A stretch of 64,000 nucleotides of DNA from an uncultured archaeon (GTDB lineage Archaea > Asgardarchaeota > Hermodarchaeia > Hermodarchaeales > Hermodarchaeaceae): contig CAYFXC010000001.1 of assembly GCA_964347045.1 (NCBI GenBank), positions 187,256 through 251,255 of the forward strand. The letters run 5' to 3'. Position numbers and translations under genes: made by a program. The notes beneath the pieces were generated by a model. The model did no database searches. It was not told the DNA's origin and was given only the letters and a program-made list of their open reading frames with translations. Of this stretch, positions 5,579-61,821 are shown piece by piece. Every line of letters begins with the position of its first letter. Positions within the stretch are counted from its first letter, which is position 1.

Positions 5579-5848
5579 CTGCTGCAAGGAATTGGTCATG
5601 TTATACACATTTCCGCGCAAGGAAATGTCATTGCGCGTCTAAAGCAAGCTATACGAATAGGAACGCTCGTTTTCTCAACCCACTCTCAACTGATTGGAAG
5701 AGTAATTGATATCTTTGGACCAACTATTCAACCGTTTGCTACTTTAAAGCCTGAAACAAAATTAACAAACGCCGTAGTGCCTCCTGGGACAACTCTATAT
5801 CTAAAGAAGGCTCCAAAAGGAGGCGTAGGGAAACGACGAAAGAAGTAA
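5579..5848 (+). CDS. gar1: H/ACA RNP protein Gar1/Naf1 (missed by ORF track; probable CTG start)
   Basis: Own translation [41 protein letters not shown]..; conserved gar1-tfb linkage; GGAG upstream. Confidence 0.85.
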
Positions 5849-20460: not shown

Positions 20461-22708
20461 CATTAGGTGGGAACAAGCTATAAGACAGATCGCTCGGTTA
20501 CCGCTTGAAAAATCAATTAAGACCTATTTCAAAGAGAAAGGCATTACAACATTATATCCTCCTCAAGAAGCGGCTCTTAAAACCGGTGTCCTTGATGGAA
20601 AAAATGTGGTGTTAGCGATTCCGACCGCTTCTGGGAAAACGCTCATTGCTGAGTTATGTATGTTGAAAGCAATCGTTGAACGAGGAGGAAAGGCCTTGTA
20701 CCTTTGTCCACTCCGTGCACTAGCTTCGGAGAAGTTTGATGAGTTTCGTCCTTACTCTGGGCTTGGGGTGAATGTGGGTATTACTACCGGGGATTATGAT
20801 ACAATTGAAGAAAAATTCGGTGCTTATGATCTTCTCATCTGTACAAATGAACGCGCCGACTCGCTACTGCGGCATCGCGCAAAATGGATGTCAGACATCG
20901 CCATTGTTATTGCTGATGAGGTTCATCTAATTAACGATCCAAGTCGAGGTCCTACACTTGAAGTGGTACTCGCTAGATTACGGCAAATTGCCCCCAACGC
21001 CCAAATTCTTGCGCTTAGTGCGACTGTAGATAACGCTGATGAACTTGCTGAATGGCTTAAAGGTCAAGCCGTGGTTAGCGACTGGCGTCCCGTTTCTCTA
21101 CGTGAAGGTGTTTACTATGAGGGCAGTGTTTTTTTTGCTGAAGGTGACGAAGAAAGCTATACACCAGCAACCTCGTTTCCCATCGGTGATATCACTCGGC
21201 GAGTTCTCAAAAAGAAAGGCCAACTCCTCGCGTTTCTAAATACACGGCGGTCCGCAGTTCGAACCGCCCAAAAACTCATTTCAGTAACCGCACCACGCTT
21301 GAAACAACGTGAACAAAAACAGTTAGGAGACTTGGCTGAACGATTGCTCCAACTGGGAGAAGTCACCCAGGTTACAGATACACTTGCCCGACTTCTCCGA
21401 GCCGGAGTGGCGTTTCATCATGCAGGGCTACGTTATTCCGAACGCAAACTTATCGAAGAAGCATTTCGCAACAATCTAATCAAAGTAGTATGCGCCACTC
21501 CAACCTTAGCCAGTGGTGTCAATCTTCCAGCCCGTGTTGTGATTATCAGGGAATATCGGCGATATGATAGACTTGAGGGCTATCAACCAATTCCTGTGTT
21601 GGAATACAAACAAATGGCTGGGCGTGCTGGCAGACCAAAATACGATACAACGGGGACAGCCATTCTAATTTCTCGAAATGAGGGCGAACGCGATTTTCTC
21701 CTAGATTACTATACTCTCGGAACTCCTGAAAGTATCATTTCAAAACTGGCTACTGAATCTGCACTCCGAAGTCATGTGCTTTCAACGATTGCCATGAATT
21801 ATGCCTCAGATAAAGCTGGTATCATGGAGTTCATCAGGCAAACCTTCTTTGGGCATCAACGCGACCCCGATGAAGTCGAATATATGATTGATTTAATTGT
21901 GGATTTCCTCAAAGACGAAACTCTCCTTGAGCAACAAGGAAGGCGATTATTTGCCACTTCCTTTGGAAGGCGAGTATCCCAGCTTTACATTGATCCAAAA
22001 TCTGCGGTTGTAATTCGCGATGGCCTTGCAAGAGCAATCAAACAATTTGAGCACACCACAGACGTTTCTTTCCTACACCTAATCTGTCATACGCCTGATA
22101 TGGCAAACCTCTATCTTCGGCGTGGAGACGATGAGCGGTATCATGATTACGTCATCGAGCACATCGATGAATTTCTCACACCCATTCCTGATCCACGGTA
22201 TCATCGAGAGCGATATGAGTTCTTTTTAGCGGAAGTGAAAACCGCGCTTATGGTAAAAGCTTGGATCGAAGAACTCCCAGAAGATCAAATTGTGAATCAG
22301 TTTAAAATTGGGTCTGGTGACCTTCTTCGATTAGTAGATACGCAAAAGTGGTTGATATATGCATGTCATGAACTCGCACCCATTTTTGGGTATCGGAAAA
22401 TTGTTCCGGATCTTGAAGAATTGGAACTCCGTGTAAGGTATGGTGTAAGGCGGGAACTCACCGAGTTGGTTGAACTTCAGGGCATTGGCCGTGTCCGTGC
22501 CCGGTATCTCTTTCGTACTGGTTTTGTTTCAAAGAACCGAATACGCGATGCACCTTTAGACCAACTAGCGGCGGTTCCTACGATTGGGGCCCAAATTGCC
22601 ATGTCTATTAAACAACAATGTGGTGGGGCTATCAATCCAGAAGAAGAACAAGCGTTAAAGGACACACGGCGGCAAACTACAAGACAAACCCAATTAACAC
22701 TAGATTAG
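20453..22708 (+). CDS. hel308: Ski2-like DNA helicase Hel308/Hjm
   Basis: PTASGKT, DEVH, LSAT, FHHAGL, QMAGRAGRP, HhH GIGRVRAR. Confidence 0.94.
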   Translation: MPNIRWEQAIRQIARLPLEKSIKTYFKEKGITTLYPPQEAALKTGVLDGKNVVLAIPTASGKTLIAELCMLKAIVERGGKALYLCPLRALASEKFDEFRPYSGLGVNVGITTGDYDTIEEKFGAYDLLICTNERADSLLRHRAKWMSDIAIVIADEVHLINDPSRGPTLEVVLARLRQIAPNAQILALSATVDNADELAEWLKGQAVVSDWRPVSLREGVYYEGSVFFAEGDEESYTPATSFPIGDITRRVLKKKGQLLAFLNTRRSAVRTAQKLISVTAPRLKQREQKQLGDLAERLLQLGEVTQVTDTLARLLRAGVAFHHAGLRYSERKLIEEAFRNNLIKVVCATPTLASGVNLPARVVIIREYRRYDRLEGYQPIPVLEYKQMAGRAGRPKYDTTGTAILISRNEGERDFLLDYYTLGTPESIISKLATESALRSHVLSTIAMNYASDKAGIMEFIRQTFFGHQRDPDEVEYMIDLIVDFLKDETLLEQQGRRLFATSFGRRVSQLYIDPKSAVVIRDGLARAIKQFEHTTDVSFLHLICHTPDMANLYLRRGDDERYHDYVIEHIDEFLTPIPDPRYHRERYEFFLAEVKTALMVKAWIEELPEDQIVNQFKIGSGDLLRLVDTQKWLIYACHELAPIFGYRKIVPDLEELELRVRYGVRRELTELVELQGIGRVRARYLFRTGFVSKNRIRDAPLDQLAAVPTIGAQIAMSIKQQCGGAINPEEEQALKDTRRQTTRQTQLTLD

Positions 22709-22737
22709 CACGCCAAAGTAATTGTGAGGTTGCCATT

Positions 22738-23802
22738 TTGCCAACTGGTCTATTTTATCATACTGCCTTCCTTAAGCATGAAATGGGATTTAGCCATCCT
22801 GAACGCCCAGAACGCCTGACGGCCGTTATGAAATTCTTAGAAGAAAACCAAGCGTTCAAGAATGGACATATTGTATTACAAAAACCCTCTGCGGTCAACC
22901 TCGCTGATTTAGAACGAGTTCATCCGAAAGATTACATTGATTTTATTCATAACGCGTCAGATCGGGAGGCTCGAATAGACGCGGACACTCGGACATCCAA
23001 AGGCTCCTACAATGCTGCGATTTTAGCCGCAGGAACGGGCATTAAAGCTTGGGAAGAGATACAAACAGGTACTATCAATAATGCATTCGCCCTCGTGCGT
23101 CCTCCTGGGCATCATGCAAATGAACAATCTGCTCGTGGATTTTGTTTATTCAACAACGTTTCCGTACTTGCCCGCTATATCACAGCAACTGTTTCCGACA
23201 GTCGTGTACTAATTCTTGACATAGATGCCCACCACGGAAATGGTACCCAAGAGATTCACTATGCAGACTCTGACATCCTGTATCTTGGGCTTCATCAAGA
23301 TGGACGTACTTTGTATCCTGGATATTCTGGGTACATAGATGAACTTGGAGAAGGGAGGGGAAAAGGCTTTAATGTAAATCTTCCATTGCCGCCAGGAACA
23401 GCCGATCATTCATTTTTACAAGGCTTATCTATGCTTTTTCCTCCGATAGTTGAACAATTCCAACCCACTGCAATTCTTGTCTCTGCAGGATACGATGCAC
23501 ACTTCCGTGACTATCTCACTAACCTTCAATTCAGTGCCGATGCTTATCTCAAATCTGCGCAATTAGTCATGGAAACTGCTGAGAAACACTGCCAGGGCCG
23601 GGTGATTATGTTCTTAGAAGGCGGTTATGATTTACAAGCCCTAGCCGAATCAATATACAACACATTGATCGCAATGAGTGGTCAGGGAGCCCCGATTCAA
23701 GAAAAAGCTCCCTCCGAGGATTCTCGTATCTCCAAATATATGCACACCCTCCTCAAAGAAATCAAGACGCTTCTTAAACCGTGGTGGAAAATTCCTGAAT
23801 AA
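22738..23802 (+). CDS. Histone deacetylase family protein
   Basis: HPERPERL, RPPGHHA, GFCLFNN, DIDAHHGNGTQ, LEGGY. Confidence 0.94.
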   Translation: MPTGLFYHTAFLKHEMGFSHPERPERLTAVMKFLEENQAFKNGHIVLQKPSAVNLADLERVHPKDYIDFIHNASDREARIDADTRTSKGSYNAAILAAGTGIKAWEEIQTGTINNAFALVRPPGHHANEQSARGFCLFNNVSVLARYITATVSDSRVLILDIDAHHGNGTQEIHYADSDILYLGLHQDGRTLYPGYSGYIDELGEGRGKGFNVNLPLPPGTADHSFLQGLSMLFPPIVEQFQPTAILVSAGYDAHFRDYLTNLQFSADAYLKSAQLVMETAEKHCQGRVIMFLEGGYDLQALAESIYNTLIAMSGQGAPIQEKAPSEDSRISKYMHTLLKEIKTLLKPWWKIPE

Positions 23803-45823: not shown

Positions 45824-46687
45824 TTAGCAGTCGAAAATTTGGACATCAAGGACAAAATGATCGTATCTTGGATTATAAGTCTTAATCTTTCGGGAATTTA
45901 CTACTTCAACCCGCCGCTTCATCAATGAGGCGATATCTTCAATTTTTAAAAAAATTTCAGTGGCAAAATCATTCTTAGAACCAATTTCATGAATATGCAT
46001 CATTCCCTCAGAGTGAACGCACTGTATTCCAGCTTCCAGATACTTATCTGTTCCTTGAATTAAACCCATGATGACCCGATCTGCTTTGCCTTGACTGATA
46101 GTTGGCGCTATTAGGCGGGTATCTCCAAAATATGTTCGGTAAATCTCAGTGACATTGTTGGTCTGAATATTCTGTTTAAGATAGTGAAAAGCTTCAGGGT
46201 TCCATTCAATCGCATGAATAGTCTTGGGTCTTGCATGCACAGCCATGGGTAATGACAACTGTCCAATACCTGCAAACATATCAACGACCAATTCACCAGA
46301 CCCAATTTTGCTCATGCGAAGGCGTTCTCCTTTATTTCCAACAGAAAACATTACTTTCATTGGGTCTATATGAAAAACCACTTTATTTTCTCTGAAGACT
46401 GTTTCTGTTTGAGGTGAACCCGCAATCAGTTCGACTGCAGGTTGTCGATAAGGTCCTGCGATGGCTGCTGTTCGTCTCAACACTGATCGGATTTTTTTAC
46501 TATACTGCAACGTGATTTGCCCAATTACTTCCTTGTACTTTTCAATTCGTGGATCTAACCATAAGATGGCCACATGCCCCAAAATGCGAATACGGCGAGG
46601 TAACAGCTCGGACGGAATTAGCTCATCAAGCTCGGTTTCAAGGAACTGATAAAACGTCTGACGGCGACGACGGGGTATTTTCTTCAC
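45824..46687 (-). CDS. Trm5/Taw2 (Met-10+) family SAM-dependent tRNA modification enzyme
   Basis: KVMFSVGN..ER, DMFAGIG, IEWNPEAF, ADRVIMG. Confidence 0.85.
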   Translation of the reverse strand: MKKIPRRRRQTFYQFLETELDELIPSELLPRRIRILGHVAILWLDPRIEKYKEVIGQITLQYSKKIRSVLRRTAAIAGPYRQPAVELIAGSPQTETVFRENKVVFHIDPMKVMFSVGNKGERLRMSKIGSGELVVDMFAGIGQLSLPMAVHARPKTIHAIEWNPEAFHYLKQNIQTNNVTEIYRTYFGDTRLIAPTISQGKADRVIMGLIQGTDKYLEAGIQCVHSEGMMHIHEIGSKNDFATEIFLKIEDIASLMKRRVEVVNSRKIKTYNPRYDHFVLDVQIFDC

Positions 46688-46702
46688 CTGAACGTTGATG
46701 AT

Positions 46703-47004
46703 TCGAAGAAGTGGTGGGTCGCACCTGCTCTGCTGACCGATACACTAACGCCCCGTCATCATTGGTGGGCGGAACGCCTTTTTCCTCTGACAGGTCCTCT
46801 CTTAATATGTCGGGCATGATGAGTGGTTTGCGACCCGGCGTTGAAGTGTGGACATCGTGGGTTGCCCCCACAGTCACCTCTTGACGACCCGTCATAGATC
46901 ATGCAGGAGCCTGTCACATGCCGCATAACCTTCAACGCTGCTCCAGTGTTGCCACAAATTTGCACGAATCCTCATCAGAACGAATTCTTCGGGTTCGTCC
47001 TCGA
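46703..47004 (-). ncRNA. Unassigned ~300-nt structured RNA
   Basis: Nested long-range stems TCGAGGA/TCTTCGA, GCGTTGAAG/CTTCAACGC, GGGTCGCA/TGCGACCC, TCATCAT/ATGATGA; GCAA loops; no credible ORF. Confidence 0.6.
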
Positions 47005-47067
47005 TGGTGGCTAATATCCTTTCATTGCAACTATCAGAACGGAAACGGCGCCTCAAAAACGCTTTCA

Positions 47068-47562
47068 CTATTGCCTTGAAACCCCATGGTAAATGATTCG
47101 ACCATCTCGGTCGATTTGTCCGGCTCGTATTCGAGTTGACGAAATGGAAATCTGATCTTCTGCTTTCACCATTGTTAATACAGCGATGTGTAAAAGCGGC
47201 AAATCATGCTCGCGACGGATTTCATTGATTTCTTTAGCGACGGGACAGGTTTCTTCACTGACCACAATCAGTTCGAGTTCGGGCATTGTAATGGAAGGTC
47301 CATATTTGTTGTGTAACGGTCGGATGATATATCGTCCGGTGTAACTCTCTGCATTTAACCATTTTTCAAGTTCATTTTTCCGTTCATCATAACTTGCTAT
47401 GATTTTCCAATCAGGTTTGTGCTTTACCATGTCTTGGGTCGTTAATCCAATAAGAACCTGTTTACCTAGCTCGAAGGCACGACGGAGAAGCGTCCTATGA
47501 CCTTTATGTAATTGGTCAAAAGTTCCACCAATGGCCACCCATTCATATGGTTCCTCAGACAA
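47068..47562 (-). CDS. coaD: Phosphopantetheine adenylyltransferase (archaeal/eukaryotic type)
   Basis: GGTFDQLHKGH, IVVSEET, ISSTRIR; TTG start after GAGGAG. Confidence 0.92.
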   Translation of the reverse strand: MSEEPYEWVAIGGTFDQLHKGHRTLLRRAFELGKQVLIGLTTQDMVKHKPDWKIIASYDERKNELEKWLNAESYTGRYIIRPLHNKYGPSITMPELELIVVSEETCPVAKEINEIRREHDLPLLHIAVLTMVKAEDQISISSTRIRAGQIDRDGRIIYHGVSRQ

Positions 47563-47642
47563 GACGCACTCCTCATGTCTTGCATAAGTGTTCAGCTGAA
47601 AAAGGTTTAGCACATGCCACGATTCGAATACCACATACGATT

Positions 47643-53435: not shown

Positions 53436-53567
53436 CCCGGCGTAGCTCAACCTGGTAGAGCGTCTGGCTGTAGGTATACACCGCACCCTGAGCCACACGG
53501 CGATGACTCGGTGTCAACCAACGCAGATACCAGATGGTTCCTGGTTCAAATCCGGGCGCCGGGACCA
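53436..53567 (+). tRNA. tRNA-Tyr(GTA) with canonical 55-nt intron (53474-53528)
   Basis: C1-G72, TCTGG-CT-GTA-G^A-CCAGA; CTGT/GCAG BHB helix. Confidence 0.93.
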
Positions 53568-53618: not shown

Positions 53619-53726
53619 GCCCGTTTAGTGTAGCCAGGTCTATCATCTGGGACTGTCAAGGGTCTATGAAACTCATAGAGCTGCGGATCTCCTAGGACTC
53701 GGGTTCGAATCCCGGAACGGGCGCCA
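53619..53726 (+). tRNA. tRNA-Asp(GTC) with canonical 30-nt intron (53659-53688)
   Basis: TGGGA-CT-GTC-A^C-TCCTA; CTGT/GCGG BHB helix; G73-CCA. Confidence 0.93.
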
Positions 53727-61512: not shown

Positions 61513-61821
61513 ATGGATGCAGAAACTGCAATACGATTGGCTGTGAAATCCGGTAAAACGGTGTTCGGTGCTGACCGAACGCTACACTTACTTCGAACCG
61601 GATCTCCTCGTGTGGTTATTCTAGCGGCAAATGCGCCTACTAATGTGATTGATGAAATCGATTCGCTAGCAAAAACAAACCAAATACCGATTCACCAATT
61701 TCGAAGTAATAGTTGGGATTTGGGTCAAATATGTGGGCGTCCACATATGGTAGCAGCTATGGCTGTTTTAGAACCTGGTGACGCTGATATTACTGTTTTA
61801 ACTGGGGCTGGCAAGAAGTGA
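61513..61821 (+). CDS. rpl30e: 50S ribosomal protein eL30
   Basis: AVKSGK..FG, LGQICGRP, EPGDADI; conserved synteny. Confidence 0.95.
   Translation: MDAETAIRLAVKSGKTVFGADRTLHLLRTGSPRVVILAANAPTNVIDEIDSLAKTNQIPIHQFRSNSWDLGQICGRPHMVAAMAVLEPGDADITVLTGAGKK

Follow-up and report, generated by a model that had tools for sequence, protein, structure and literature searches.

A divergent Asgard member of the HgcG/Pab40 RNA family with three tandem H/ACA hairpins and predicted targets in 23S rRNA

What does an Asgard archaeon encode in a 380-bp gap between two protein genes of the same strand? The gap (46688–47067) lies in the stretch of 64,000 nucleotides analyzed here (the window), where a minus-strand coaD-like cytidylyltransferase-like gene is followed by a minus-strand TRM5/TYW2 (Taw2/Trm5) methyltransferase gene (Table 1), just as a preliminary description of this DNA had placed it. 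That description regarded the gap as an orphan structured RNA, be it a novel ncRNA, a strongly divergent RNase P or large C/D RNA, or a regulatory leader. As argued below, the gap very probably holds the gene for a minus-strand sRNA of ~325 nt that has its own BRE/TATA promoter and three tandem box H/ACA guide modules, is the Asgard ortholog of Pab40/Pf7/Afu4/HgcG, and guides pseudouridylation of 23S rRNA. The sRNA is a real and phylum-wide RNA gene, a divergent new member of a known RNA family with modest architectural novelties, and pseudouridine formation at conserved sites of the large rRNA is most likely directed by it. The window also carries the archaeal SRP RNA, 5S rRNA and intron-bearing tRNAs; two of the tRNAs give long matches (53436–53564 and 53619–53723), suggesting introns.

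Table 1. Features of the sRNA locus and genes for candidate protein partners (window positions unless a contig is named; RNA letters are read on the minus strand)
Feature	Position	Strand	Details
CTP_transf_like/coaD-like cytidylyltransferase-like gene	47068-47634	minus	stop codon 47070-47068
Putative archaeal promoter	47053..47066	minus	BRE GAAAGC 47066-47061; TATA box GTTTTTGA 47060-47053
Whole sRNA gene	46706..47031	minus	~325 nt; conserved core ~46706-47028
Kt0 5' strand (extra box-C-like K-turn)	47019..47030	minus	C-stem UUGC, bulge AAU, G-A, then AAG
Kt0 3' strand	46938..46946	minus	CUG-GA-GCAG, immediately after first ACA box
H/ACA hairpin 1	46951..47011	minus	P1 47011-47007/46955-46951; P2 46998-46991/46971-46964
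Hairpin 1 candidate guides	5' 47006-46999; 3' 46963-46956	minus	5' CAUCGAGG; 3' GCAAAUUU
Hairpin 1 K-turn	46990-46989; 46976-46972	minus	GA with GAUGA
Hairpin 1 ACA box	46947..46949	minus	14 nt from P2
Module 2	46839..46937	minus	closing helix 46937-46931/46845-46839 around H/ACA hairpin 2 (46924-46850)
Hairpin 2 stems		minus	P1 GGCAU/AUGUCC; P2 ~10 bp
Hairpin 2 candidate guides	5' 46917-46911; 3' 46863-46856	minus	5' GUGACAG; 3' AACCCACG
Hairpin 2 K-turn and box	46900-46899; 46878-46874; 46849-46847	minus	GA with GGUGA; ACA
Module 3	46716..46836	minus	closing helices 46836-46830/46722-46716 and 46824-46821/46730-46727 around hairpin 3 (46815-46735)
Hairpin 3 stems		minus	P1 GCCCGA/UCGGUC; P2 CCUGUCA/UGACGGG
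Hairpin 3 candidate guides	5' 46809-46795; 3' 46751-46741	minus	5' CAUAUUAAGAGAGGA; 3' GCGUUAGUGUA
Hairpin 3 K-turn and box	46787-46786; 46763-46759; 46733-46731	minus	GA with AAUGA; GCA at the ANA position
TRM5/TYW2 (Taw2/Trm5) methyltransferase gene	45824-46687	minus	
Gar1 gene	5588-5803	plus	30 bits
Second L7Ae-family gene	61519-61794	plus	60 bits
cbf5	G000:C16 ~21775-22860 (L034:584-1668)	minus	two adjoining frames

The gap sequence is present once each in 17 of 18 genomes of the same family, which represent two genera, at 74–91% identity. With a covariance model built from an explicit 75-pair structure (R1), 49 of the 151 Asgard genomes sampled, distributed over 11 families, each give a single full-length match. 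The pattern of change among the aligned homologs is not that of a protein gene: single nucleotides account for 40 of the 46 internal indels, variable columns are equally frequent in the three codon phases (fractions 0.46–0.49), and the longest open frame switches strand and frame between homologs, which have no ORF in common. Codon-type conservation of the short ORFs, which had been named at the outset as an observation that would speak against an RNA, is absent, and a coding reading of the gap is excluded.

The BRE/TATA-like box upstream, already noted in the preliminary description, lies directly 3' of the coaD-like stop codon and ~28 nt ahead of the first conserved RNA nucleotide. Its pattern, GRAAG-N2-3-TTTWWGA, is kept in all 18 family homologs of an 18-sequence alignment. 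Judged by its position and consensus, the box probably functions as a promoter from which the sRNA would be expressed. The ends of the gene in Table 1 are estimates: the distance to the TATA box sets the 5' end, and the 3' end is placed in the pyrimidine/U-rich tail that follows the last helix.

Single-sequence folding energies are unexceptional on both strands (z = -1.4 for the minus strand and -0.7 for the plus strand), and the case for structure is therefore made by comparative data and not by thermodynamics. RNAalifold returned three domains from a MAFFT alignment, with 20 pairs kept through two-sided changes. When the 75-pair model was counted on this same, independent MAFFT alignment of the family, 96.2% of the cells paired, compared with 35–49% when the partners were slid by 1–3 columns; two-sided change was seen in 19 of the 75 pairs within the family (4–7 in the slid controls), and the covariation score of 0.234 (0.05–0.08 slid) was reached by none of 500 shuffles. 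A deep alignment of 16 sequences from six Asgard families, which was fitted to the covariance model and hence leans towards it, has 90.6% of cells paired and 66 of the 75 pairs changed on both sides (15–31 slid), the kind of covariation that a structured RNA was expected to show once homologs were collected. This covariation, together with the lack of a coding signal, confirms a structured non-coding RNA, as opposed to a coding region or chance structure, and it is the minus strand, as first suggested, that is the RNA strand.

The individual helices drawn earlier had mixed fates. Three long-range helices had been proposed; two of them hold, with all seven pairs of each changed on both sides in the deep alignment (46931–46937/46839–46845 and 46830–46836/46716–46722). 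The outermost (46998–47004/46703–46709) is not conserved: one of its pairs survives in just 1 of 18 relatives, the 3' strand belongs to the variable tail, and the 5' strand coincides with the invariant hairpin 1 guide. The "GCAA-capped hairpin" GUGGG-GGCAA-CCCAC likewise dissolves, since in the supported fold these letters form the 3' strand of an upper stem and then the invariant 3' guide AACCCA. The two TGATGA motifs, conversely, have found their place as the 3' strands of the K-turns in hairpins 1 and 3.

The supported fold repeats one plan three times: a lower stem (P1), an invariant two-strand internal loop (the pocket), an upper stem (P2), a K-turn and then an ACA box. All three hairpins keep their stems by compensatory changes while the pocket strands are invariant. 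The bulged strand of the K-turn (UGA/GGA) lies on the 3' side and is conserved in all three, and its 5' GA partner, as read from the sequences, is present in 12–15 of the 16 deep homologs. For H/ACA guides of Pyrococcus, experiments have set the rules that H2 has 5–6 bp, that the ANA box lies 14–15 nt from the target uridine and that the 3'-guide duplex is most important (PMC2377435). Hairpin 1 keeps a P2-to-ACA distance of 14 nt in all 28 distinct sequences of two alignments, with ACA as the box except for one CCA; it shows two-sided changes in three of five P1 pairs and five of eight P2 pairs within the family (5/5 and 7/8 in the deep alignment), and its guide letters CGAGG and GCAA are invariant across six families. 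Hairpin 2 holds its box at 14–15 nt in every homolog despite free divergence of the stems; its closing helix (7/7) and P1 (6/6) have changed on both sides throughout in the deep alignment, and its 3' guide AACCCA is invariant in 16/16 deep homologs. Hairpin 3 is supported by two-sided changes as well (closing helix 7/7, P1 4/5, P2 7/7, deep alignment), and its guide letters GAGAG and GUUAGU are conserved in the same alignment. Its P2-to-box distance is 15–19 nt overall, with 18 nt in the family of the window and 15–16 nt plus ACA in other families; the box is ACA in most homologs, and in the window copy and six close relatives of this genome it reads GCA, which is not an ANA. The atypical helix 69 guide of H. 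volcanii tolerates longer ACA distances (PMC7075261).

At gathering thresholds, Rfam has no match in the gap. The best long match on the window copy is HgcG (RF00064), at 13.5 bits (E 0.23). The same model matches three distant Asgard copies (L068, L067 and L062) with 46.2, 40.7 and 33.6 bits (E 6.7e-10, 3.3e-8 and 5.1e-6), spanning model positions 1–276 at exactly the coordinates found by R1, and R1 links these loci to the window copy at E 1e-20 to 1e-30. Through these intermediate copies, the window copy has significant full-length similarity to HgcG, and the RNA loses the orphan status first given to it, a link to a known family having been named beforehand as grounds for doing so. In the HgcG alignment, motif 1 falls on hairpin 1 and motif 3 on hairpin 3, and the middle motif is left unaligned; the letters in common include CGAGGA, the 3'-guide GUUA, the K-turn AUGA and the ACA boxes. 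The curated HgcG gathering threshold of 77 bits is reached by no Asgard copy (the best has 46.2); the RNA is thus a divergent homolog and would escape annotation by Rfam.

Pab40, Pf7 and Afu4 (HgcG of Thermococcales and Archaeoglobus) also have three H/ACA motifs per RNA; every motif has an ANA box and either a K-turn or a K-loop, and the target regions in P. abyssi 23S numbering come in the order 2588, 2678 (predicted for Pf7/Afu4) and 2016 in stem-loop 69 (PMC2377435). Pab40 and the Asgard RNA have guide letters in common, namely CGAGGA and GC.A in motif 1 and GUUA in motif 3. The Asgard RNA differs from Pab40/HgcG in being longer, in enclosing hairpin 1 by a box-C/D-like K-turn and each of hairpins 2 and 3 by a 7-bp helix, and in a hairpin 3 5' guide that follows the lineage's own helix 69 sequence, GACUCUCUUAAGG, leaving UAUGA unpaired. 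A second close parallel is sR-h45 of H. volcanii, a single RNA that guides both the uridine after UGGGUU (2605) and two uridines of the helix 69 loop (1940 and 1942) (PMC7075261). Its helix 69 hairpin also leaves more than two target nucleotides unpaired (UNUN) and has a longer ACA distance, and its 2605 hairpin forms short duplexes of 3 + 5 bp (PMC7075261). Unlike the Asgard RNA, sR-h45 has two hairpins and no guide for the 2496-equivalent, and in place of closing helices it has a 56-nt linker able to form a pseudoknot, a comparison made by description. In eukaryotes, too, H/ACA RNPs with a core of Cbf5/dyskerin, Nop10 and Gar1 serve these conserved LSU pseudouridines, the helix 69 guides being snR191/U19 (PMC7075261). 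Compared by description, the eukaryotic guides differ from the Asgard RNA in their hairpin-hinge-hairpin-tail plan with an H box and without K-turns, and in using separate snoRNAs or hairpins for each site. A limited literature search combining Asgard with Cbf5, pseudouridine and sRNA found, among the papers listed, none mentioning Asgard.

The structural novelty of the Asgard RNA lies in how its hairpins are enclosed. Directly after the first ACA box, a GA-GC strand joins a box-C-like 5' end (GC-RAU-GA) to form an additional K-turn, Kt0, around hairpin 1. Both GA dinucleotides of Kt0 are invariant in 16/16 deep homologs; its C-stem pairs are CG14/UG2 and GC15/AU1, and its NC-stem pairs are AU11/GC2/GU2 and GC15. 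Kt0 and the closing helices around hairpins 2 and 3 are absent from the Rfam HgcG consensus. The ACA boxes thus lie inside closed modules and not in free linkers. This placement counts against the guide reading in so far as it may be incompatible with Cbf5 binding. A tentative and rather speculative extension is that this is an Asgard "closed-module" H/ACA architecture, in which every hairpin plus ACA is locked within a closing element that puts the ACA in an internal loop, hairpins 2 and 3 have extended unpaired target loops (UAGA and UAUGA), and one pre-organized triple RNP would modify the peptidyl-transferase ring and helix 69 together, possibly from the taw2 transcript. Kt0 and the closing helices are small structural novelties of biochemical interest; the function itself is unsurprising.

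Which uridines would be modified? No 16S or 23S rRNA was found in the window's own assembly (89% complete), and the targets were therefore read from rRNA pieces of relatives that carry the same sRNA; these pieces are fragmentary and intron-rich. A whole-genome target scan yielded dozens of equally good chance sites per hairpin, and in a flexible scan (loops of 2–6 nt, shifted registers) antisense rRNA controls scored as high as sense rRNA. Score-based claims were therefore dropped in favor of invariant-core patterns and published sites of the Pab40 family. Scores alone are weak evidence, and the coincidence with published Pab40-family sites carries the weight of the assignment: in P. abyssi 23S, position 2588 is the verified or assigned site of Pab40 motif 1, and 2016, within the stem-loop 69 loop, is that of motif 3, and motif 2 of Pf7/Afu4 is predicted for the 2678-equivalent, a pseudouridine in haloarchaea (PMC2377435). 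The Pab40 target list gives 1932 for motif 2 in P. abyssi itself. Taken motif by motif, the complementarity of the Asgard RNA fits the Pab40 target order for motifs 1 and 3 and partially for motif 2.

Hairpin 1 pairs canonically with the 23S rRNA of relatives: GCAA with UUGC (4 bp), then an unpaired UU, then CAUCGAGG with CCUCGAUG (8 bp). The pattern of its invariant core occurs in the relatives' rRNA only at the equivalent of position 2496, never on the antisense strand, and at a genome background of 0.01 per 10 kb. Guidance of U2496 (P. abyssi 2588) is a firm prediction, and the pseudouridine would form in the context CUUGC-U-UCCUCGAUG. Alignment to the E. coli sequence makes this target E. 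coli position 2496.

In hairpin 3, UUAAGAGAG is fully complementary to CUCUCUUAA, which lies on the 3' side of helix 69; GUUA pairs with UAAC on the 5' side. This pairing leaves five nucleotides unpaired, UAUGA, and not two, and these include the equivalents of U1915 and U1917. Both genomes whose rRNA pieces cover helix 69 (2/2) show the invariant-core pattern of hairpin 3 there. U1915 and/or U1917 (P. abyssi 2016) is a good but atypical predicted target, with one or both loop uridines in GUAAC-U-A-U-GACUCUC as the site of pseudouridine. High-scoring sites for hairpin 3 in the SSU rRNA of two relatives (G006 and G008) were rejected, as they lie in different rRNA introns and are unconserved; another SSU site, GAGC-UG-UCCUCUU, pairs poorly with the 3' guide. 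An SSU intron of G006 contains AUGCUAAC-UG-CUCUCUU, which pairs canonically with the hairpin 3 pocket (8 + 7 bp, unpaired UG); this match (L027), seen in one genome only and possibly due to chance, lies immediately before the point where the exon takes up again, at G016 SSU position 981.

Hairpin 2 is the least clear of the three. Its AACCCA pairs with UGGGUU (2580–2585), directly 5' of U2586, and no canonical complement of its 5' guide was found beside U2586 in the relatives' rRNA. The best option for that guide is the 5' strand of helix 93, which leaves UAGA unpaired; the 7-nt match alone is not significant. U2586 (P. abyssi 2678) is tentatively predicted as the target, and the pseudouridine might form in the context UGGGUU-U-AGACC. 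The apical hairpin GACGGGUC was considered as a 5' guide for GACCGUC and set aside, since its loop letters vary among relatives and its stem covaries; other GGGUU-U sites in rRNA were also considered, and none pairs with the 5' guide. The 5' guide GUGACAGG is similar to GUGAGACAGG, a strand of helix 93 in the rRNA itself. Sense LSU rRNA of three relatives (L020 in G017, L021 in G015 and L022 in G006) contains UGUGACA-CUAGA-AACCCAG, which is like the two pocket strands of hairpin 2 in the same order, so that its complement, on the antisense strand, has the look of a perfect target for hairpin 2.

These ambiguities bear on a rival reading in which the fold is indeed H/ACA and at least one hairpin, above all hairpin 2, serves as a chaperone or scaffold of rRNA folding or processing, like eukaryotic snR30/U17. 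The missing canonical complement of the hairpin 2 5' strand beside U2586, its resemblance to helix 93 and the extra helices that close the modules would all suit such a role, and motif 2 of Pab40 is also structurally ambiguous and weakly active (PMC2377435). Yet AACCCA is invariant across the phylum and complements UGGGUU just 5' of a uridine that haloarchaea carry as pseudouridine (PMC2377435; PMC7075261), H. volcanii has a known guide for the uridine after UGGGUU that itself makes do with 3 + 5 bp (PMC7075261), and hairpin 2 keeps the ACA spacing of 14–15 nt expected of a guide. A chaperone or scaffold is improbable, and hairpin 2 is more probably a guide as well. A cis-acting 5' leader or regulatory element of the taw2/trm5 mRNA, sensing for example tRNA or a metabolite, is less probable still. 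In its favor, only ~20 nt separate the end of the sRNA from the start of the co-oriented taw2, no obvious promoter lies between them, and three Asgard families retain the adjacency, even at a Taw2 identity of only 35%. Co-transcription with taw2, however, would also suit a guide that matures from a longer transcript. The sRNA lies away from taw2 in families f15, f5 and f9, that is, in three of the six families examined, and the Rfam search of the gap returned no riboswitch or leader family, in keeping with the earlier remark that no riboswitch could be recognized. The fixed ACA spacing, the four K-turns, the invariant loops that face covarying stems and the HgcG match are the anatomy of a guide RNA. 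It is because of the unlinked copies and this anatomy that a leader is considered unlikely.

The least probable reading, refuted by the results that follow, would make the gap a small-protein gene or, as an RNA, either a large box C/D RNA or RNase P RNA in highly divergent form. The length of ~300 nt, the UGAUGA motifs and the short ORFs of 57–85 codons on both strands might have suggested one or another of these. The genome's RNase P RNA, however, is found elsewhere (G000:C1:6379-6756, 177 bits), and RF00373 has no match in the gap. Rfam box C/D families reach only 11–16 bits (E >= 0.56), and the alignment contains a single C/D-like K-turn (Kt0) and neither C'/D' boxes nor methylation guides. 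The ORFs, for their part, are unconserved, with indels mostly of 1 nt and no codon periodicity.

A guide RNA of this kind would require protein partners, and all four H/ACA proteins, Cbf5, Nop10, Gar1 and L7Ae, are encoded in the genome (Nop10 80.7 bits, Gar1 30.1 bits, L7Ae family 96.4 bits). Cbf5 has its DKCLD, TruB_N, TruB_C_2 and PUA domains in an interrupted reading frame: one ORF of 79 aa carries DKCLD and another of 281 aa carries TruB_N, TruB_C_2 and PUA. The frame breaks near L034:1490-1500, just upstream of the EKPPGPTSHEVV...GHSGTLD motif; a frameshift, a misassembly or a small intron may account for the break. By analogy to reconstituted archaeal H/ACA RNPs, the K-turn of each hairpin would be the binding site of L7Ae, and the lower stem together with the ACA box that of Cbf5-Nop10-Gar1; the two pocket strands would pair with 23S rRNA on both sides of a uridine, which Cbf5 would isomerize to pseudouridine. 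The genes for Gar1, the second L7Ae-family protein, the H/ACA sRNA, SRP RNA, 5S rRNA and several tRNAs lie in one window.

The sRNA is directly upstream of and co-oriented with taw2 in three Asgard families (window 45824-47634, L056, L057, L060, L061 and L067–L069). Read-through from an rRNA-modification guide into the gene of a tRNA-modification enzyme, and hence their co-transcription, is possible from this arrangement.

The curated Rfam threshold misses this RNA, and R1, which finds it in about a third of the sampled Asgard genomes, closes that gap in annotation. For the Asgard ribosome, pseudouridines are predicted at the 2496-equivalent and in the loop of helix 69, with the 2586-equivalent as a further possible site. 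The helix 69 site is modified by H/ACA RNPs in Euryarchaeota and in eukaryotes (PMC2377435; PMC7075261). The Pab40-type triple guide is older than the split of Asgard archaea and Euryarchaeota. The LSU rRNA of the lineage has UU at the 2496/2497-equivalent (G006/G008; L024, L023) and GACUCUCUUAAGG in helix 69 (G006/G017; L022, L020), and the Asgard helix 69 guide has tracked this rRNA sequence. UU and GACUCUCUUAAGG are the eukaryotic (yeast 25S) versions and not the bacterial or euryarchaeal ones, and the tracked helix 69 sequence is identical to the eukaryotic one. Yeast 25S position 2865 is guided by snR46, and the yeast sites 2826/2865/2880 have the same spacing as P. abyssi 2549/2588/2603. 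The rRNA genes of the relatives are themselves heavily interrupted (L027 at G006:C71:619-4212, L022, L024 and L028): the SSU match (L027) spans 3.6 kb for a model of 1478 positions and the LSU falls into several pieces, consistent with multiple rRNA introns.
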